This document shows positions 1-48,870 of a DNA stretch of 64,000 bases, one piece after another. Under the pieces are notes generated by a model. The model made no database searches and was not told the DNA's origin. It was given only the letters and a program-made list of their open reading frames with translations. This DNA is from a bacterium. GTDB taxonomy: Bacteria > Electryoneota > Electryoneia > Electryoneales > Electryoneaceae. The stretch spans positions 2,848,001 through 2,912,000 of the forward strand of contig OY769902.1 of the NCBI GenBank assembly GCA_963669175.1. Reading direction: 5' to 3'. How positions within the stretch are numbered: position 1 is the first letter of the stretch; each line of letters opens with the position of its first letter. Both the position numbers and the translations under genes were made by a program.

Positions 1-855
1 AGCAACCTGACCGCAGAATGGGCGTCAGTATTTGGGAAACGGTATAAGCTAGTCGTTTCAGAACGATCCATGTACGGCTGGTATCCCTACCAGATCAGCA
101 AGTACGGTTTTGCGCACCAGAATGTGATGAATCATGTTGCGGATTGGATGGTGTTGAATTCGCATCACAGTATGGAAAACCTGAAAAAATACGCACCTCT
201 GATGGTTCAAAAGGCATCCGTGATCTGGAATATTGCCGACCTGGAAACATTTCGACCTTTGCCAGGAAAAAAAGACCGTGGCAAGCCATTCCGGTTTGTT
301 GCCGTTTCGTCCTATCATCGGTGTAAGAATGCGCCACGAGTCGCTGGCGCTGTCCGCAGGCTGGTAGAGGATGGGTACACAGAGTTCAAAGTTACCTGGT
401 TGGGACGTATTCCAGAAAAACCGGAACCAGAGGATGAGTATCGCAAGGTTGACACATACCTGAAACGCCATGACCTGTCCAGGTACTTTGAGACACCGGG
501 ACGTCAATCCAATGTGCATGAGTATCTCCAGAAAGCTGACGCGCTCTTGCATGTTACCAAGTTCGAAGGATTACCGAACGCGGTAGTGGAAGGGATGGCC
601 AGCGGTCTGCCGATAGTGGCATCACGAGTCTCGGATGTGCCACGCATGGTTACAAATGGCGAAAACGGTTTCCTGTGCGATGCCTATGATGTTGATTCGA
701 TTGTTGCTGTTATGAAAAGCTGTATGGATTCGGAACAGGAGGATCTGGTCAGGATGGGGAGGGTATCGCGCCAACGTGCCGAAAGAATGTTCAACAAAGA
801 GCATTTCCTTGATAACTATGAAAATTTGTATGCAAGATTGCTTGCCTTCCGATAA
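1..855 (+). CDS. Glycosyltransferase family 4 (GT-B), 5'-truncated by the window edge
   Basis: Frame open from base 1; GT4 motif FEGLPNAVVEGMASGLPIVAS and NGENGFL. Confidence 0.9.
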   Translation, partial: SNLTAEWASVFGKRYKLVVSERSMYGWYPYQISKYGFAHQNVMNHVADWMVLNSHHSMENLKKYAPLMVQKASVIWNIADLETFRPLPGKKDRGKPFRFVAVSSYHRCKNAPRVAGAVRRLVEDGYTEFKVTWLGRIPEKPEPEDEYRKVDTYLKRHDLSRYFETPGRQSNVHEYLQKADALLHVTKFEGLPNAVVEGMASGLPIVASRVSDVPRMVTNGENGFLCDAYDVDSIVAVMKSCMDSEQEDLVRMGRVSRQRAERMFNKEHFLDNYENLYARLLAFR

Positions 856-932
856 ATCCTCTGTTCGTTTTTTGTAAACATCGTTTTTATATTGGGTTGC
901 ATATATAATGTTGTATAGGACAGCAATACTAC

Positions 933-980
933 GAGATCCCCGTTTGATCCCCGACAACATCATTCGGGGAGGGGATGACA
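933..980. repeat. REP-like hairpin of the GAGATCCC...GGGATGACA type
   Basis: Same ends as 20596-20638 and similar to the family-B arms. Confidence 0.5.
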
Positions 981-1192
981 TGATGCGACATTTTTGTCGA
1001 GTACTGCAATAATTGATCTTTCACGGATATGCTACATGACCATATGACGGATTAATAATGGGAATGGATTAAAGCAAAAACCGATTCTTATACATTGATA
1101 TTATTGGTAATAGAATGATTCGCTATGTTGTACTCATGAAATATTCGGGTTAATAATGAGAACCGCTCAGTTTCACATCGTCATTTCATGCC

Positions 1193-1229
1193 AAAGAAAA
1201 CCGGCAACGCCTTAAAGACGTTGCCGGTT
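1193..1229 (-). terminator. Rho-independent terminator of the C25 peptidase gene
   Basis: AACCGGCAACG/CGTTGCCGGTT stem followed by a U-rich tail on the minus strand. Confidence 0.75.
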
Positions 1230-1251
1230 GGTTGTTCAGGACAGATCAGGC

Positions 1252-4200
1252 TTACTTCATCAGGATCAGCCTCGTAGTCTCGTTGATCGGGCCAGCCTGG
1301 AAGTTGAGGAAGTACATACCGCTTGCCAGGTTGCTGCCGTCAAAGGTCAACTGGTGGAAACCGGCTTGCATGGGTTGGTTGGCCAGGGTGGCAACCTTCT
1401 GACCCAGCAAGTTAAACACAGTGGCCTTTACGACCGCTGTTTCCGGCAAGCCGAATTTAACCCGTGCAATGGGATTAAACGGATTCGGATAGGCGCCATC
1501 AAAGCTGAATTCTGTCGGCAGGTCATTAGTGGGTTGATCTCCTAATCCCTTGCCGTCGTCAACAATCATGGTCACATCAACCCATTCCTGGTCTTCAGTG
1601 CAGGCGTTATGACTGATCTCGACCGCAACTGTGAATGTATCGGCCGGAAGACCATAGGAATGCAACCGGAGCTCAACCGTCTCCGTCTCACCAGCCGCTA
1701 CTGTGCCAGTTGGGTTCTGGATGCTGATCCAGTTGGAGTATGTGTCGATTTCCCACAAGTCAACCTTGTCAATATCACTGCTTTCCAGTATGCTGATATA
1801 TTGCCATACGGACGGATCCCACAGATAGGTAATATCACCGCCAGATGCAGTATAGCCATCATCACAAAGGAAAGTATGTACCGGACGCAGGTCGCCCGTG
1901 GTTGGGTTCATCTTGATGATATTGACTTCAGCTTCACCGCTCGCCTGGCCGATGAAGTAAACACTGTAGCCATCATCATCTTCCGGGAACCAACCGCCAC
2001 CACGAGGATAGAAAGTCTGGGTGAATTCATAAAGGATACCGGTGCTGTCGGGATTGATCACACGAATTTGAGTCCCGTAATCACCCACGTAGAAGTTGTA
2101 GGTATTCGGATCAAGGACAATATACCGTGCCGGGTTTGCAGGGATATCCCAGCTATCGACCGAAGTCCAACTGTCGCCGTCAAACTCCATCTGGTACATG
2201 ATACCATTATCCGCCGCATACAGGTATTCGCCATCCCAGGCCATGCCAAAGAATCCCTGGCTGCTGCGATCTGAAGCAGGTACCGGTTGATCAAATGTAG
2301 CGACATAGCTACCATTCTCATCGTACTGATACAACTTGTTCGGACCAGCGACATCATAATTGTCCGAACCACTTACCCAGAAAAATTCACCGTCGAAGAT
2401 CACACCATGATAGCGTGTCTCTATCGCGCTGAGCTCGAATTCACCAATAACATCCCAGTTCTCATCCAGTTCATTACCACTTCGAACTGGTCCACGGTTG
2501 CCATTATCGCCTCCGCTATTGAGCATTGCCTCATTTGGGAAATGGAGGCTTGCGTCGTAGTACAAGGGGCCGTTGCCATCGTTTGTGATGTCAAACTGCA
2601 TGACCATTTCTGAATCCGGAGGCGCTACAATGGACAGTTCTGTTGTGGACAAATCGAATTCGGGATGTGTGAGGCTGGCGCTGGCTTCAGTATTGGCGCC
2701 ATCTAACACCTCAACGCCATCAAGGGTCACCGGATTGTAACAGTCGGCTTCAATGACAAAATCATGTACACCGACAAACATGTCCTCAATAAGGTATTCA
2801 CCCTGCGCGTCTGTGACTCCGCTGAACAACCAGTTCGAAGTGTGAACGCAAGCGCCTTCGATCGGACTGTTGGTTTCCGAGTCGGTTACGGTTCCGTATA
2901 CACCACCGAACGGGATTGCGGTGTTCGTAGTAAACTTAATCGCGCGGCCTTCAGTAATCGCGGAAGAGCCAGGCGAGTATTCGTTCCAATACGCTACAAG
3001 CAAACCATCGGTCTGATCGCCGTTCTCGATCCCCGTGGTCCAGTAAGGCACGTCAAAGCTCATACCGCCAGAGGAATGATCGCATTCACCGTACTGGAAT
3101 ACGAACTCGTTATCACCGGTTCGTGTGGGATACATTTCTGTATCGTAGAAAATGACTTCAAAAGTGCTTTCGTATGAAGTATTATGATGCCGCATCTTGT
3201 AAAATTCGAAGATCATGCGGCCATCGTCTTCATCGTGGTAGTACAGGATTTTGCAATCGCCGTTTGTTTGCAGGTTATCCCAGTAAGGGGCAATCATGTC
3301 GTTCGGACCGCCTGGCGTAGGAATGCTCCAGTTACGGTTGTTGCAGATGCTGGGCTGCAAGCCCAGCGCCAGGAAGCCATTGGTGGTAATGGAGATATAG
3401 TCGAATGTCTGGCCGTAATAGGTAATCGGGAATCCATGAACCTCCAGGTTCAGCGTATCACCTTCATCGTCATCTTCTGAAAGGTCTTCAATATCAATCT
3501 CGATGCCTTCGAAGTCATAACCGTTTACGGCAGAATTGATCTCAACCCAATCAAAAGTTGGAGCGTATTCATAGTCAGTGTCGACATTTTCAAATCCCAT
3601 ATACCCGTAGTTGTCCGGGCCGATAGGATCTGTTGGGGCACGTTCACCGAATATGATGTTTGCATAAGCCGTATCAACCTGTCCCGTTTCAGTAGTCACG
3701 ACCAGCATGGTTTTTGCGCTGTAACCGGGGAAACCATCTTCAAGCGCCGCAACCGTGAATTCAGAGGTCACGTTTTCTTCGTTGATCTCGATTGCAGGAA
3801 CAGTGCCGGTTGGTTGAGTGACGCGCAACCAGGGATCCATGCTGACAAGCAGTGCTGTACCAGCGGCGCCATCGCTCAATCCGGCATTACCCAGGGTGAA
3901 TGCTACGTTTTGGACTGTACCGGGTTGAAGTTCGCCTGAAAAGGCTGCCTGTGTAACCACAAAGTTGGGGGCCGACAGTGACATCTCTATCCCGTCTGTC
4001 ACTGTTCCAGCAGATGTTTCAATAGTGAAATGTACCGGTACAATCCACCTGTCCTGAGCAGCGGGAGCGATCTCAACGATAATCAGCCCTGAGCCAAGAG
4101 AAGTCTGGTTCTGCTCGAGCGACGCCAGGGTGATTTCGCCAAAAGTATCTGTGATGTAAGGATCATCAATATCGCCTGTCACAGATATGTCAGTTAAGGT

Positions 4201-6333
4201 CTCATTGCCGTAATTCTTCAGCGTCATCTGGATGCCGATACGTTCACCTGCTTCAGGAATACCATCCCCGTCGCCAATGGTGCCGGTCATGCCATTATCA
4301 ATGAATTCAAAATCACTGTAGCCGACTGAACCGCCAATGACACCAACGCTGACATCAACCTGTGTCGGTGCGAAATTCAGCTTGGTTACCGTTACTTTCG
4401 CTGCGCCGGCCGATATTACTTCCGGGTAGAATGTGACCTGACCGTTTGCATCGGTATACTTGGAAATCTGGACCTCGTCCTGACCGGAGTCCTTATAGAA
4501 TGTTACCCACGCATCTACTACAGGTTCGCCGTCCTCTTCCACGGTGACCGTATACTCACGTTGTCCGAGCGTAAGCGTTTCTGACGCTTCCACATCGAAT
4601 TGATGCGGGATATCTGTCCACATGTACACCAGTGGATCGCCCATGCAGTTGTACCAACGCAGGAAGCGATCCATTTCATTGTCACGGCCATTGTAGTTCA
4701 CATAACAGTTGACCTTGGAAACATACATCAGGTCGCCCGGGGTTGGGAATTGCATCTGGAGCATACCCCAGCCTGAAGCGCCTGACAATACATTGTTGAA
4801 GTTCGGGTGTGTCATTGCTGTGGACATGGCCATGCAGACAACACCACCACGAGGAGTGCCAACTGTTCCGTGAAGCATGAACGCTTCGCTGATTGCCAGA
4901 CCGCCTGACCAGCAACCTGTTGCGCACGTTACATCAATAACAACAGGCGTCATGTAATCGTTTTCAAGTTCGTACACTTCATCAATGCTCAAGCCCTGGC
5001 CATAGTAGCCACGTTCAGCATAGAGGCTGACACCATTATCAATGCATTCCTGTGCAAAGGGATCCTGGCCGCCCCAGTTGACTGTGTCTACCTGGGTAAA
5101 ACCAAGTTTGTTCAACAGCAGGTACTTGTAGTAACGGTGCATGATGATCTTGCTGATACCGCCGCCATTGGTGTTGGCACGGTTCAGCATGGCACGGAGG
5201 TACCAGTCGGTATTATCAAAATCAACATCACGTTCGTATAGGAGCAGTTTTGCTACATATGCGGCGGCCTGTGCGACTGTTTGCACGGAAATTCGACCGC
5301 TTCCAAGGTCGGCCAGGTTATCGTTGCCAACAAGGCAGCAATACGGTTGGTCGCCGTTGTCTTCACCGCAACCACCGGAACCTGCCGGGACAGCGAAGGC
5401 GCCCTGGTCATCACCGATTACTACGACGTAATCGTAAGGATCACGCATCGTTTCGTAGCGAGATATCAACTCATTACGAATGTTGGTGGCACTCCAGCCA
5501 ATATCACTGTCAGTAATGAAATCAAGGCGCCAGCCTTTTTCCCGCTTCCACTCGATCCAGTCTTCCATGGCAGTCCAAAGTGCGTCGTCATCAACCATGA
5601 CAACAGCGACTGTGCCATCGTAGAACTCGTAATCATTCAATTCATCCAGTTCCCAATCAAGGAATGCTTCGTACATGGGAACCATCCTGCGGCTCAATCG
5701 ATTCGGCCACTGCGCAAGTGTATTCCTGTCATCAACGCCTTCATAGCGGATCTGGACACGGATGGATGAATACACGCGCACTTCGTTACGCGCCGGATTG
5801 ACCTGAACCGGATAGGTCACGAGGTTTGCTACACGAAAATCGTGCATGATAGCCGGCTCGCCTACCTCAGCAAGCGTACCCGGATACCAGCTATCCTCGT
5901 TATTCGACACACTCGTATACTGAATCGCGGTTTCAGGGCCTTCGTTCAGCTCATCACTGAAAAGGGCCGCGTATTCAACGTCCGAATATGTCACATATTC
6001 AGATCCAATTACCTCGACGACTACGCCACTGCGCGGAGGAATACGGAATAACGATGCCGCAACGGGAACATAGGGCATGCCCGCATCATCAAGTGCGCCA
6101 CTCAGAGGAAACGCAGCAAATTCCAACTGGGAACCGTCTGCACCATCCACCCCAAGCCACGTGGGATCTTCAATGTCAAGGGTCGCAGTGATTCCGGACT
6201 CATCGACTTGGAGATCAACAACTTGAAATGGCTGGATTTGCTGGTTGGATACATCTGTCAGGTGGGGTGAATCTGCGGCAAAGGCTAGTCCAGCCAGAGC
6301 CAAAACAAGTAAAACCGTAATACAGATACGCAT
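1252..6333 (-). CDS. Gingipain-like peptidase C25 family protein with propeptide, Ig-like domains and T9SS C-terminal sorting domain
   Basis: Signal peptide; C25 motifs WKREKG, YVVVIGD, GRIS, DVTCATG, MGDP; C-terminal YPNPFNP...LASGMYF; GGAGG RBS. Confidence 0.9.
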   Translation of the reverse strand: MRICITVLLVLALAGLAFAADSPHLTDVSNQQIQPFQVVDLQVDESGITATLDIEDPTWLGVDGADGSQLEFAAFPLSGALDDAGMPYVPVAASLFRIPPRSGVVVEVIGSEYVTYSDVEYAALFSDELNEGPETAIQYTSVSNNEDSWYPGTLAEVGEPAIMHDFRVANLVTYPVQVNPARNEVRVYSSIRVQIRYEGVDDRNTLAQWPNRLSRRMVPMYEAFLDWELDELNDYEFYDGTVAVVMVDDDALWTAMEDWIEWKREKGWRLDFITDSDIGWSATNIRNELISRYETMRDPYDYVVVIGDDQGAFAVPAGSGGCGEDNGDQPYCCLVGNDNLADLGSGRISVQTVAQAAAYVAKLLLYERDVDFDNTDWYLRAMLNRANTNGGGISKIIMHRYYKYLLLNKLGFTQVDTVNWGGQDPFAQECIDNGVSLYAERGYYGQGLSIDEVYELENDYMTPVVIDVTCATGCWSGGLAISEAFMLHGTVGTPRGGVVCMAMSTAMTHPNFNNVLSGASGWGMLQMQFPTPGDLMYVSKVNCYVNYNGRDNEMDRFLRWYNCMGDPLVYMWTDIPHQFDVEASETLTLGQREYTVTVEEDGEPVVDAWVTFYKDSGQDEVQISKYTDANGQVTFYPEVISAGAAKVTVTKLNFAPTQVDVSVGVIGGSVGYSDFEFIDNGMTGTIGDGDGIPEAGERIGIQMTLKNYGNETLTDISVTGDIDDPYITDTFGEITLASLEQNQTSLGSGLIIVEIAPAAQDRWIVPVHFTIETSAGTVTDGIEMSLSAPNFVVTQAAFSGELQPGTVQNVAFTLGNAGLSDGAAGTALLVSMDPWLRVTQPTGTVPAIEINEENVTSEFTVAALEDGFPGYSAKTMLVVTTETGQVDTAYANIIFGERAPTDPIGPDNYGYMGFENVDTDYEYAPTFDWVEINSAVNGYDFEGIEIDIEDLSEDDDEGDTLNLEVHGFPITYYGQTFDYISITTNGFLALGLQPSICNNRNWSIPTPGGPNDMIAPYWDNLQTNGDCKILYYHDEDDGRMIFEFYKMRHHNTSYESTFEVIFYDTEMYPTRTGDNEFVFQYGECDHSSGGMSFDVPYWTTGIENGDQTDGLLVAYWNEYSPGSSAITEGRAIKFTTNTAIPFGGVYGTVTDSETNSPIEGACVHTSNWLFSGVTDAQGEYLIEDMFVGVHDFVIEADCYNPVTLDGVEVLDGANTEASASLTHPEFDLSTTELSIVAPPDSEMVMQFDITNDGNGPLYYDASLHFPNEAMLNSGGDNGNRGPVRSGNELDENWDVIGEFELSAIETRYHGVIFDGEFFWVSGSDNYDVAGPNKLYQYDENGSYVATFDQPVPASDRSSQGFFGMAWDGEYLYAADNGIMYQMEFDGDSWTSVDSWDIPANPARYIVLDPNTYNFYVGDYGTQIRVINPDSTGILYEFTQTFYPRGGGWFPEDDDGYSVYFIGQASGEAEVNIIKMNPTTGDLRPVHTFLCDDGYTASGGDITYLWDPSVWQYISILESSDIDKVDLWEIDTYSNWISIQNPTGTVAAGETETVELRLHSYGLPADTFTVAVEISHNACTEDQEWVDVTMIVDDGKGLGDQPTNDLPTEFSFDGAYPNPFNPIARVKFGLPETAVVKATVFNLLGQKVATLANQPMQAGFHQLTFDGSNLASGMYFLNFQAGPINETTRLILMK

Positions 6334-10391: not shown

Positions 10392-10523
10392 GGATATGGA
10401 AAAAAGGGATAGTTTCCTTTTCCATGAATGCTTCAAGAGTATTCAATATAAACGCGAGGAAAAGGATCCCGTCCCCTTTCCCCGGCAATCTCCATTATGA
10501 CGGAAAATAATCGAGAATAATTA
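10392..10523 (+). repeat. Repeat family A, half copy (one doublet)
   Basis: Matches the 3' half of 26217-26450 and 47218-47446. Confidence 0.9.
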
Positions 10524-10567
10524 TACTTATTTAAGATAAACCCTGATTGCACAGCAATCAGGGGCAG
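10521..10567. repeat. Direct repeat, copy 2; contains the perfect hairpin CCCTGATTGC-ACA-GCAATCAGGG
   Basis: Similarity to 9499-9545. Confidence 0.75.
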
Positions 10568-26216: not shown

Positions 26217-26450
26217 TTGGAAAAAGGGGACTGCCTCCTTTCCCTGGGGTAAAGCCTTTCCGGCGTGAGCATGGACCGGGAAAGGTGGCTGTACCCTTTT
26301 TCTTGAAAGCAGGCAGGAAGTACACGGAAAAGGGGACAGTTTCCTTTTCCAGAAATACTTCAGGAATATTCCGTATAAGCGCGAGGAAAAGGATCCCGTC
26401 CCCTTTTCCCGGCAATCTCCATTATAACGGAATTAAATCGATAACAGCTA
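26217..26450 (+). repeat. Repeat family A, full BIME-like copy (4 units in 2 inverted doublets)
   Basis: Units at 26219, 26279, 26326 and 26385; near-identical to 35478-35712 (reverse) and 47218-47446. Confidence 0.95.
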
Positions 26451-26483
26451 TGTGTATAGGGAGTATACAAGCAAGCCGATCCA

Positions 26484-35385: not shown

Positions 35386-35477
35386 GGCAGCATCATTACA
35401 TCAATTCCTCTATTAAATTACAGATAGGATTTTCGAGGAAACAAGTCCTTGGACTCCGTTCTGCCAGTTTTTTGTAT

Positions 35478-35712
35478 ATAGCAGTTCTCGATTTTATTCC
35501 GTCATAATAGAGATTGCCGGGAAAAGGGGACGGGATCCTTTTCCTCGCGCTTATACAGAATATTTCTGAAGTATTCCTGGAAAAGAAAACTGTCCCCTTT
35601 TCCGTGTGATTCCTGCCTGCTCGCAAGAAAAAGGGTACAGCCACCTTTCCCGGTCCATGCTCACAGCGGGAAAGCTTTGCTCCTGGAAAAGAAAACTGTC
35701 CCCTTTTTCCAT
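35478..35712 (-). repeat. Repeat family A, full copy in reverse orientation
   Basis: Reverse complement aligns with 26217-26450. Confidence 0.95.
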
Positions 35713-47063: not shown

Positions 47064-47217
47064 TATTGAGTTGGAAGCCAACTACCTTACATATGGTAGC
47101 CATATATTATGGCCTGGTACATTATCACCTTTCAGTTTTTATGGCGATTCCTATTATTTGTTCGATATATGGTCATGTGTTATATCAGCGAAAGATCCAC
47201 TATATAGTTGGAAAAAA

Positions 47218-47446
47218 GGATATGGAAAAAGGGGACTGCCTCCTTTCCCTGGGGTAAAGCCTTCCCGTTGTGAACATGAACCGGGAAAGGTGGCTGTACC
47301 CTTTTCTTGAGGGCAGGCAGGAATTATACGGAAAAGGGGACAGTTTCCTGTTCCATGAATGCTTCAAGCGTATTCCGCATGAGTGCGAGGAAAAGGATCC
47401 CGTCCCCTTTTCCCGGCAATCTCTATTTTGACGGAAATAAATCGAG
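47218..47446 (+). repeat. Repeat family A, full copy; tail interrupted by IS110 and resuming at 48817
   Basis: Aligns to other copies up to AAATCGAG; AGAACAACTATA resumes after the element. Confidence 0.95.
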
Positions 47447-47533
47447 TTCCTATGTTAAACGACAGGCGCATCAAGTCGTGTTGGAACTGCTATCTTAGCA
47501 GTATTCCATTTTTCCAACACAAGGAGAAGCGCC

Positions 47534-48595
47534 ATGTCGAAGAACCAAGTTATTGCAGCGGACCGTTCATTGTCTATAGGTCTGGATGTTGATTCGCAGA
47601 CTTCTTTCGCCGTTGTGCTCGACACCCAGACTGGTGAAGTGCTCTTTGAGAATCGGATCAAGCATGACTCAGCCGCTTGGGAACGCTTCTTTGCCCGTTT
47701 TCCCAACTGCCGCATGTGGGCGTGTTATGAAGCGGGCCTCACCGGCTTTGGCCTCTGTCGTTACCTGATCGGCCAAGGTGTTGACTGCCAGATCGCGCCG
47801 CCCAGCCAAGTTCCCAAAGGGGCGCAAGCGAAGCAGCAGAAGACCGATCATCTGGATGCCCTTACCTTGGCCCACATGTTCTGGACACCACCTCGTACCT
47901 GGGTACATGTCCCCACAGAACAGGAAGAGGCGGATCGTCAGTTGTCTCGCACCCGTGACCAGGTGATGAATGATCGCGTTCGGGTCAAAAACCGAATCAA
48001 GAGTCTGCTATTGTTTCACGGTTTACAGTCACCGTTTCCGCCGCAACGCTATTGGACAAAGGAATACCGGCGCTGGTTGCGAACGTGTGATTGTCTGGCC
48101 GCGACACGGATAGCCATTGATGTTGCTCTCGATGAGCTGGAGGCCATTGAACAGCAACTCAAGGTGATCACCAAAGCGATCAAGGCGATGAATGCGTCCG
48201 CAACGTATCGGGACCGTACCCAGCGCCTGCGCCAGGTGAAGGGAGTGGGCGAGTTGACCGTGAACGCCTTCGTGACCGAGATGTATCGTCCCGAACGCTT
48301 CGCATCCGGTAAGCAAGTCGGCGCACATCTTGGCTTGACGCCGTGTGAATGGTCAAGCGCCAACACACGCCATATGGGACACATTACCCACTGGGGACCG
48401 TCCCATCTACGAAAACTATTGGTCGAAGCTGCGTGGCGTTGGGTGCAAAAAGATCCGTATGCAAAGAAGAAATACGATGCGATCCATGCCGGGAAAACAC
48501 GGAAAGTGGCGATCGTCGCCATGGCACGAAAACTAGCCGTGATACTGTGGGCCATGCTGGTCAAAGAACAAGACTACAATCCTGCCTGCGTATAA
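47534..48595 (+). CDS. IS110 family recombinase/transposase
   Basis: DEDD residues in GLDVD, YEAG, KTDHLDA; GVG; GLTPCEWSSA catalytic-Ser region; VAMARKLA. Confidence 0.97.
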   Translation: MSKNQVIAADRSLSIGLDVDSQTSFAVVLDTQTGEVLFENRIKHDSAAWERFFARFPNCRMWACYEAGLTGFGLCRYLIGQGVDCQIAPPSQVPKGAQAKQQKTDHLDALTLAHMFWTPPRTWVHVPTEQEEADRQLSRTRDQVMNDRVRVKNRIKSLLLFHGLQSPFPPQRYWTKEYRRWLRTCDCLAATRIAIDVALDELEAIEQQLKVITKAIKAMNASATYRDRTQRLRQVKGVGELTVNAFVTEMYRPERFASGKQVGAHLGLTPCEWSSANTRHMGHITHWGPSHLRKLLVEAAWRWVQKDPYAKKKYDAIHAGKTRKVAIVAMARKLAVILWAMLVKEQDYNPACV

Positions 48596-48639
48596 CCCCA
48601 GCACTGCTGGCAGGTAGGTAAAGCATAGATTGTGATTGA

Positions 48640-48780
48640 ATCGTCCGATGCCATTGGGAACACGCGACCCTGGTAGTTATTCTGTTGCTTGACAACGATT
48701 CGAGTTTAGGGCGCCGCTGTTCCGTGCGAACAAAAAACTTGTGCCACGAGCACGAATAGCAGAACGGCACATGGGACGAT
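48640..48780 (+). ncRNA. Putative bridge/seek RNA
   Basis: Closing stem ATCGTCC.ATG/CAT.GGACGAT; two internal loops carrying target and donor matches. Confidence 0.8.
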
Positions 48781-48870
48781 ACAAAGGCTCTTTACACCCT
48801 TGACTGTTTACATAGCAGAACAACTATAACTTTCTAACTTAACAACTACACAAGCTTTTTAGAGATTACC

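Follow-up and report, generated by a model that had tools for sequence, protein, structure and literature searches.

How does an insertion sequence come to lie twelve bases inside the end of a dispersed repeat? The question is raised by a bacterial locus in the phylum Electryoneota. The window, i.e., the whole stretch of 64,000 nucleotides that was analysed, covers positions 2848001-2912000 of a single 5.447-Mb contig and contains an IS110-family element that interrupts a copy of a repeat family, here called repeat A. [quoted passage not shown] RNA-guided target choice is established in IS110/IS1111 elements (PMC11208160; PMC11187229).

Boundaries and insertion sites of the element

The locus comprises the following parts.

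47140..47444, + strand: copy of the MITE-like repeat A; left terminal repeat TATGGCGATTCC..., consensus TATAGCGATTCCC; it ends at the G before the insertion
47445..48816, + strand: insertion sequence assigned to the IS1111 group, 1372 bp, AGTTCCTATG...TTTACATAGC; its left end is taken to include the donor core AG
48817..48828, + strand: core copy, read as target-derived (AG at this locus), followed by the 10 final bases of repeat A (AACAACTATA), which form the outer segment of its terminal repeat

The left junction reads AAATCG-AG|TTCC (47439-47446) and the right one CATAGC-AG|AACAACTATA (48811-48828). At greater length they read ...GGAAATAAATCG-AG-TTCCTATG... and ...TTTACATAGC-AG-AACAACTATA. 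These are the junctions given by an earlier, sequence-only reading of this DNA, and the element cuts the last 12 bases off the repeat copy. The same reading had proposed that removal of the element restores an empty site. Excision of 47445-48816 in silico does restore AAATCG-AG-AACAACTATA, with the limits of the element now refined to these positions; the repeat itself starts near 47140 and not at 47218, which is only the start of a hairpin.

The boundaries were obtained from the copies in the genome. Twelve full-length copies with 99.27-100% identity were detected by blastn, which found no fragments of the element in the genome. The flanks diverge from 47443 (C in 11 copies, A in one) and from 48817 (A in eight, G in four), and the constant unit is AGTTCC...CATAGC, 47445-48816, with 14 variable positions inside it. 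The element is judged to be active or recently active. An assembly unitig spans 47444-48816, but it comes from the only two public runs holding the stretch, which belong to one study, consist of contigs only and are possibly the source of the genome, so that it is not independent support for the boundaries. In these two runs, no unitig joint bypasses the element or links its ends. The k-mer depth of the unitig is 287 against 22.3/19.8 in flanking unique contigs in one run, and 398 against 32.9/28 in the other. This ratio corresponds to about 13-14 copies compared with the 12 assembled, and noise, circles or unassembled copies could explain the difference.

Seven of the twelve copies stand in repeat-A tails, three in the ends of a second family, repeat B, and two in unique DNA. 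The site motif common to all of them is YCG/CAG-(A/G)G-AAYNNCTAT. To the left of the core, the restored sites carry TCG (10 sites), CCG (one) or CAG (one), and the core itself is AG in eight and GG in four. The right flanks are AACAGCTATA and AACAACTATA (four each), AATAACTATG (two), AATAACTATA and AATTTCTATT (one each). At every site, a G precedes the core (-1) and the second core base is also G; AA follows at +1/+2 and CTAT at +6 to +9, and the right flanks vary at positions 3-5 and 10. All insertions have one orientation and no target duplication, one core copy being sufficient to restore the site. Hence the target is a sequence of about 16 nt and not repeat A as such, since the motif is common to all five copies outside repeat A. 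The sequence-only reading had tied the element to repeat-A tails and would have been refuted by copies at unrelated sites; five of the twelve do lie elsewhere, yet they all carry the motif, which generalises the claim. Its view that the non-palindromic tail is hit rather than the hairpins agrees with the sites found.

A single ancestral insertion could also have been co-amplified around the genome with its repeat, and the same kind of left flank does recur in seven copies. This hitch-hiking is barely credible, though, as the element copies are at least 99.3% identical whereas the host repeat copies have diverged and are truncated to different extents. Moreover, three copies lie in another repeat family and two in unique DNA, and the right flanks differ at positions 3-5 and 10. 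The seven repeat-A hosts share only about 70% pairwise identity over their last 230 nt, which argues for independent insertions.

The four insertions with a GG core are informative about the core copies. In 4/4, the left junction reads AG and the right junction GG. Uninterrupted ends of the repeat-B type read TCG-GG-AAC..CTATA in this genome. Because they carry GG, the right core copy is taken to be target-derived and the left one donor-derived. This assignment is consistent with the left extension of 7 bases and the right one of 3 that IS1111 elements carry outside their subterminal repeats (PMC11187229). A two-base staggered exchange predicts both AG-left/GG-right and GG-left/AG-right products once replication has taken place, but only the former was seen (4/4, p ~ 0.06). 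The comparison of cores further indicates that the first core base need not match, and the guide U predicted to face it can wobble with G.

The interrupted repeats

Repeat A was described in the sequence-only reading as similar to bacterial interspersed mosaic elements (BIMEs). This description did not hold: repeat A is one unit of about 320 bp with sharp ends, and the insertion point falls outside any palindrome. A blastn search gave 155 high-scoring segment pairs, and the segment 47139-47446 has 41 matches in the genome, many of which start at query position 1-3. The 19 full copies listed measure 317-340 bp (two are shorter), start with TATAGCGATTCCCATTATTATTCCGTCAT and end in ...ATGACGGAATAAAATCGAGAACAGCTATA or in CAATA/TTATA variants. 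Their termini are imperfect inverted repeats (23-24 matches over 31 aligned positions), and 92 right ends are found in the genome. The tail that receives the element forms the inner half of the terminal repeat on the right side; insertion takes place 12 bases from the end. The copy in the window contains two long imperfect hairpins (47227-47305 and 47329-47414). These hairpins of about 80 nt also gave sub-threshold matches to animal microRNA precursors (28 and 21 bits, where the gathering scores are 88 and 60), and were rejected as microRNAs, being hairpin look-alikes with Rfam scores far under gathering.

Repeat B is about 366 bp long. Its termini, TATAGTCGTTCCCGAAAGT and TATAGTTATTCCCGAAAGT, are 24/30 identical and form a terminal inverted repeat of about 20 bp; the end that carries the insertions reads ...CAGCAATAACTTTCG|. 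The interior is pieced together from short G+C-rich hairpin modules, e.g., GCCTGCTGAAGCAGGC, with 50-85 copies each. The A and B families have a common terminal sequence. About 485 termini of the repeat-B type were counted in the genome with two substitutions allowed, some of which surely arose by chance. A non-coding element of 1254 bp with repeat-B termini lies at 847296-848549. It has no open reading frame over 97 aa and is filled with other short hairpin modules, e.g., AGCAGGCTTTAGCCTGCT and CACCCGGCTTCAGCCGGGGTG, which suggests a modular, cassette-like growth of the repeat elements. Another repeat-B end holds about nine 18-bp tandem units (ATCGAATCAGCAATAGAC / ...GCT) at 4232950-4233110, directly adjoining the insertion point; this array stands left of the element copy at 4231559 (- strand).

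On their structure, both families are best called MITE-like, as they are small, non-coding and bounded by terminal inverted repeats and occur in many copies. They are not termed proven MITEs, because neither a target duplication nor an autonomous partner was found: the flanks of the 19 full repeat-A copies show no direct repeats beyond a possible TA inside TATAG...CTATA, and scans of termini paired at distances of up to 4 kb revealed no transposase gene between them. The two best candidates for a partner between such termini encode a glycosyltransferase and a secreted fn3 protein, and were rejected. An IS630-like (DDE_3) element was also discarded, its ends (CTAGTGCCAGTTTAGATCAAG...) being unrelated to the repeat termini; it is present in five identical copies, e.g., at 3627807-3628235. 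The TATAG...CTATA termini presumably resemble those of the Correia elements of Neisseria. A search of 16 relatives (80-100% complete), among them a genome of the same genus (92% complete, 390 contigs), did not turn up repeat A.

Could the repeats nevertheless form a host system of palindromic BIME or REP (repetitive extragenic palindromic) type, as for IS621 or ISPpu9, with the tail as a REP-associated spacer? Both families hold hairpins, and the G+C-rich modules of repeat B, such as the one named above, recur 50-85 times. Ten Y1_Tnp matches (IS200/IS605 or REP-associated type) were also found in the genome; this domain family includes REP-associated transposases. The sharp ends and matching termini of repeat A and the terminal inverted repeat of repeat B speak against such a system, as does the insertion point, which lies within a terminal repeat, 12 bases from its end, and is neither in nor beside a palindrome. 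This framing is thus considered very unlikely, and a target motif in the termini of MITE-like repeats remains the preferred reading.

A predicted guide RNA in the element and its relatives

The components of the element on which the guide model is built are listed below.

47450..47460, + strand: left subterminal inverted repeat CTATGTTAAAC, aligned to the reverse complement of the right end
47534..48595, + strand: transposase gene, 353 aa, DEDD_Tnp_IS110 and Transposase_20 domains
48664..48714, + strand: predicted target-binding loop in the minimum free energy (MFE) fold; outer stem GCG.CCCUGG / UUAGGG.CGC
48716..48768, + strand: predicted donor-binding loop; stem GCUGUUC/GAACGGC, inner hairpin 48739-48755
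48800..48816, + strand: right end; TTGACT 48800-48805, right subterminal repeat GTTTACATAG 48806-48815, last base C

Membership in the IS110 family, already proposed by the sequence-only reading, is borne out by both Pfam domains, which score above their cut-offs (PF01548, 65.7 bits, E = 5e-18; PF02371, 71.5 bits, E = 8e-20). D18, E66, D105, D108 and S274/S275 are invariant among 36 homologues, and we take them to be the catalytic residues. The subterminal repeats (CTATGTTAAAC versus CTATG-TAAAC) show 10 matches and one indel. They leave extensions of 7 bases on the left and 3 on the right if counted from ATGT (AGTTCCT|ATGT... and ...ACAT|AGC), or 5 and 1 if counted from CTATG. Non-coding DNA amounts to 221 nt downstream of the transposase gene against 89 nt upstream. 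In the IS1111 group, subterminal repeats of about 11-13 bp with extensions of 7 on the left and 3 on the right are described, and the longer non-coding region lies downstream of the transposase gene (PMC11187229). By these features, the element can be assigned to the IS1111 group of the IS110 family.

By analogy with studied elements, the element would excise as a circle, with its right and left ends abutting. TTGACT in the right end would then serve as the -35 and TATGTT (47451-47456), within the left subterminal repeat, as the -10 of a junction promoter, giving TTGACT, 17 nt and TATGTT across the abutted ends. This sigma-70-type promoter would drive the transposase gene and the 3' non-coding region, the latter yielding a seek/bridge RNA. 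In one loop of this RNA, two guides would read the target: UAGUUAUUCU would pair with the top strand (core and right flank) and GAUUCGAG with the bottom strand (left flank and core). A second loop would match the element's own ends. The transposase-RNA complex may then recombine the circle into (T)TCG-(A/G)G-AA(T/C)AACTAT in one orientation and without target duplication. The target sequence is part of the terminal inverted repeat common to A (~320 bp) and B (~366 bp), and because it belongs to this repeat, the element lands 12 bases inside the repeat ends. What the sequences show are the copies, their sites, the motif and the complementarity in this element and in its relatives; the RNA, the circle and the sequence of strand exchanges are inferred.

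The complementarity on which this mechanism builds can be read directly. The 5' guide UAGUUAUUCU (48674-48683) is complementary to the top strand AG-AATAACTA; the 'right guide' named by the sequence-only reading is present here, TAGTTATTCT at 48674-48683 being the reverse complement of AGAATAACTA. The 3' guide GAUUCGAG (48697-48704) has the same sequence as the left flank TTCG followed by the core AG. Between the two guides lies an inner hairpin (48684-48696, GUUG-CUUGA-CAAC). In the sites, AA at +4/+5 pairs with UU, AG at this place leaves one wobble, and (G)UAG is the partner of CTA(T). In the donor loop, AACU (48736-48739) faces AGTT of the left end, and AAUAGCAG (48755-48762) corresponds to CATAGC of the right end and the AG that follows it. 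The guide for the top strand precedes that for the bottom strand and overlaps it at the core, which agrees with the arrangement described in IS1111-type seekRNAs (PMC11187229). The only polymorphism in the 3' non-coding end is at 48739 (T in nine copies, C in three), at the base of the predicted donor loop that would face the first core base of the donor, where C would pair with G. The copies with C occupy two AG-core sites and one GG-core site, without a clear pattern.

Relatives of the element were compared for the same features. At E <= 1e-30, 817 transposase homologues were found in the protein database, the best non-self match being 85% identical and the next 64%. A transposase with 48% identity was present in 2/40 genomes of relatives searched, and a single-protein scan of genome contigs gave three distant loci. 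The ends were inspected in 19 loci from metagenome and genome contigs (44-56% identity). Where present, they have in common AGTTYCTAT on the left and (C/T)ATAGC|AG on the right. The internal sequences GAAUAGCAG and GAATAGCAG each occur in 14/15 tabulated loci, both being missing from locus L041. In nine relatives, the subterminal repeats covary, i.e., the sequence differs while the inversion is kept, and TTGAC(T/A)-17-TAT(G/A)(T/A)T spans the abutted ends in the element and nine relatives. Among the relatives, the target loop keeps its distance from GAAUAGCAG but varies in sequence. The MFE folds of several relatives repeat the pattern of stem, loop, hairpin and loop, but formal tests of a conserved structure gave no signal, as set out below.

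These loops were then scored against the flanks of nine elements with both flanks known. Each element's own flanks ranked first in seven cases and second in two. The mean score was 13.9 for self and 11.4 for non-self (Mann-Whitney p = 6e-6), for a small sample whose rows are not independent, as loci L013 and L033 hold one element type. This related type (L013:445-1797 and L033:1041-2610, transposase 48-53% identical) stands in the two records at near-identical sites, CCCTAATCC-AG-CG(T/A)TAACTGTG, and seems from these flanks to use a recurring target as well.

Several results weigh against the guide model. Position 3 of the right flank is C in 8/12 sites and gives an A.C mismatch, which the guide evidently tolerates at +3, to judge from the occupied sites. 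The 5' guide of the donor loop is weak, with only about 4 bp. A stretch of 223 nt (48596-48818), made up of the 3' end with the last base of the stop codon and the core copy, folded no more stably than its shuffles (z = -1.05; 32/200 shuffles as stable). RNAalifold returned 0 consensus pairs on a MAFFT alignment of 12 loops, and no Rfam family matched at E <= 1. With a simple pairing score, the occupied sites ranked within the top 12 to 5,982 out of 10.9 million positions, where hundreds to thousands of empty sites tie with them, so that pairing as scored is insufficient.

Recognition by protein only is one alternative. The transposase itself would read the target, e.g., CTAT as a likeness of the subterminal CTATG, and the complementarity of the 3' end would be a coincidence. 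CTAT is invariant in the 12 right flanks and also opens both subterminal repeats, and the 3' end gives no thermodynamic or RNAalifold signal. The position of CTAT does not agree, however, being +6 to +9 from the core in the targets and +4 to +7 in the left end. In relatives that share the CTATG subterminal repeats, insertions occur at sites lacking CTAT, and the loops follow each element's own flanks. Because the relatives' targets lack CTAT, this motif is attributed to the present guide rather than to a family-wide preference of the protein. The studied IS1111-type elements also require the RNA (PMC11187229). Recognition by protein only is therefore regarded as improbable, and guidance by the element's RNA is retained.

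The guide model can also be held against the sites left empty. Tails were catalogued by blastn and re-anchoring, which replaced a catalogue by fuzzy regular expressions with only 25 rows. YCG-AG-AA is kept by 66 of the 92 right tails of repeat A, and none of the 26 whose left side or core deviates is occupied. The sequence-only reading had called for occupancy to be tabulated against tail sequence, and the association found is not put down to chance: among the 66, CTAT stands at +6 to +9 in 15, seven of which are occupied, compared with 0/51 of the others (Fisher p = 8.3e-6, a descriptive value, as the classes were set after the occupied sites had been viewed). The tails without CTAT comprise 19 of the AACAGCAATA type, about 10 of the GTTATA type and others. 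Genome-wide, 98 sites fit NNNG-RG-AAYNNCTAT, including the 12 occupied ones. Occupancy differs with the bases at +4/+5 (AA 7/11, AG 4/11, TT 1/3, all others 0/73), and sites of this pattern with TCG on the left are occupied in 10/30 cases.

Three uninterrupted tails lie in the window, where 0.01 would be expected from shuffles.

10508..10525, + strand: uninterrupted repeat-A tail TAATCG-AG-AATAATTATA
26435..26452, + strand: uninterrupted repeat-A tail AAATCG-AT-AACAGCTATG, core AT
35477..35494, - strand: uninterrupted repeat-A tail AAATCG-AG-AACTGCTATA, the only site in the window with the full motif YCGRGAAYNNCTAT

All three had been reported before and are confirmed, with ATCGAGAATAATTATA (10510-10525, +), ATCGATAACAGCTATG (26437-26452, +) and ATCGAGAACTGCTATA (35477-35492, -). 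The tail at 10.5 kb had been proposed as a good empty target, and does match the right guide at 9/10 positions. With nine paired positions plus wobbles, its pairing score equals that of most of the occupied ones. At +6, however, it carries T in place of the C seen in 12/12 occupied sites, and its quality as a target is unproven. The tail at 35.5 kb has TG at +4/+5, which pairs poorly with the guide. For the tail at 26.4 kb, protection by the AT core is plausible and the tail is probably refractory, because G is the second core base in 12/12 sites as well as in all relatives; the genome contains just two tails with an AT core.

Known systems and implications

The parallel drawn in the sequence-only reading with IS621 and REPs stands insofar as a dispersed repeat serves as landing site; IS1111 in QMITE2 and IS4321/IS5075 in Tn21 ends are closer. 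IS4321 and IS5075 reportedly insert into the terminal inverted repeats of the Tn21 family. Like the present element, they are IS1111-type, have subterminal repeats and enter the terminal inverted repeat of another mobile element. Their targets are said to be the 38-bp ends of large plasmid-borne transposons, whereas those described here are non-autonomous elements of about 320-366 bp with many chromosomal copies. In Coxiella burnetii, 20 of 21 IS1111 copies lie inside QMITE2 (PMC5896051). There too, an IS1111-group element sits in a small inverted-repeat element (here 10/12 at repeat ends), and empty copies remain. In contrast, the IS1111 target as described is a GTAG palindrome (REP) inside the MITE, while the stretch hit here is non-palindromic, belongs to a terminal repeat and is found in two families. 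The Coxiella host is unrelated to this one.

The seekRNAs described for ISEc11, ISPa11 and ISKpn4 resemble the predicted RNA in that the non-coding region lies downstream of the transposase gene and in the order and overlap of the guides; subterminal repeats, a junction promoter and the lack of target duplication are further similarities (PMC11187229). Those elements were studied experimentally, in contrast to the present one, which is likened to them by its architecture. IS621 and ISPpu9 share an RNA with target and donor loops, a dinucleotide core and a dispersed repeat as target (PMC11208160; PMC12288879), and ISPpu9 uses an AG core at REPs (PMC12288879). As described there, they differ from the present element: they are members of the IS110 group, carry their RNA in the left end, lack long subterminal repeats and target palindromic REPs. 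A search of the literature outside subscription papers brought up no account of an IS1111-type element that targets a terminal repeat common to MITE families. The supplements of the seekRNA and bridge-RNA papers might list a close relative. Such targeting is, in any case, a small variation on known behaviour.

For the repeats, an insertion severs the outer 12 bases of a terminal repeat and would be expected to put that end out of action. The repeat-A subfamilies with the most members have the endings CAATA (19 tails) and TTATA (about 10) and are never occupied. Their changes, at positions 6 and 7, face the distal guide bases and break the symmetry with the left terminus TATAGC. The element might therefore be pictured as a hyperparasite of MITE-like families engaged in an arms race, and the asymmetry of the GG-core insertions, if not due to chance, would reveal which polarity strand exchange has in an IS1111-type recombinase. 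These readings are speculative and rather unlikely. The GG-core insertions show in addition a natural tolerance of a mismatch at the first core base.

Current understanding of the mechanism is unchanged by this locus, which is a clear but ordinary example of known behaviour in a lineage that is little studied, judging by its nearest named relative. The annotation of an abundant repeat family is corrected from BIME-like to inverted-repeat-bounded and MITE-like. For IS110/IS1111 recombinases, this one genome, which is closed, offers a well-resolved natural case, with 12 insertions alongside dozens of graded empty sites. The table of sites amounts to a small natural specificity screen, in which changes at position 3 and at the first core base are tolerated, and changes at positions 6-9 and at the second core base are never seen.

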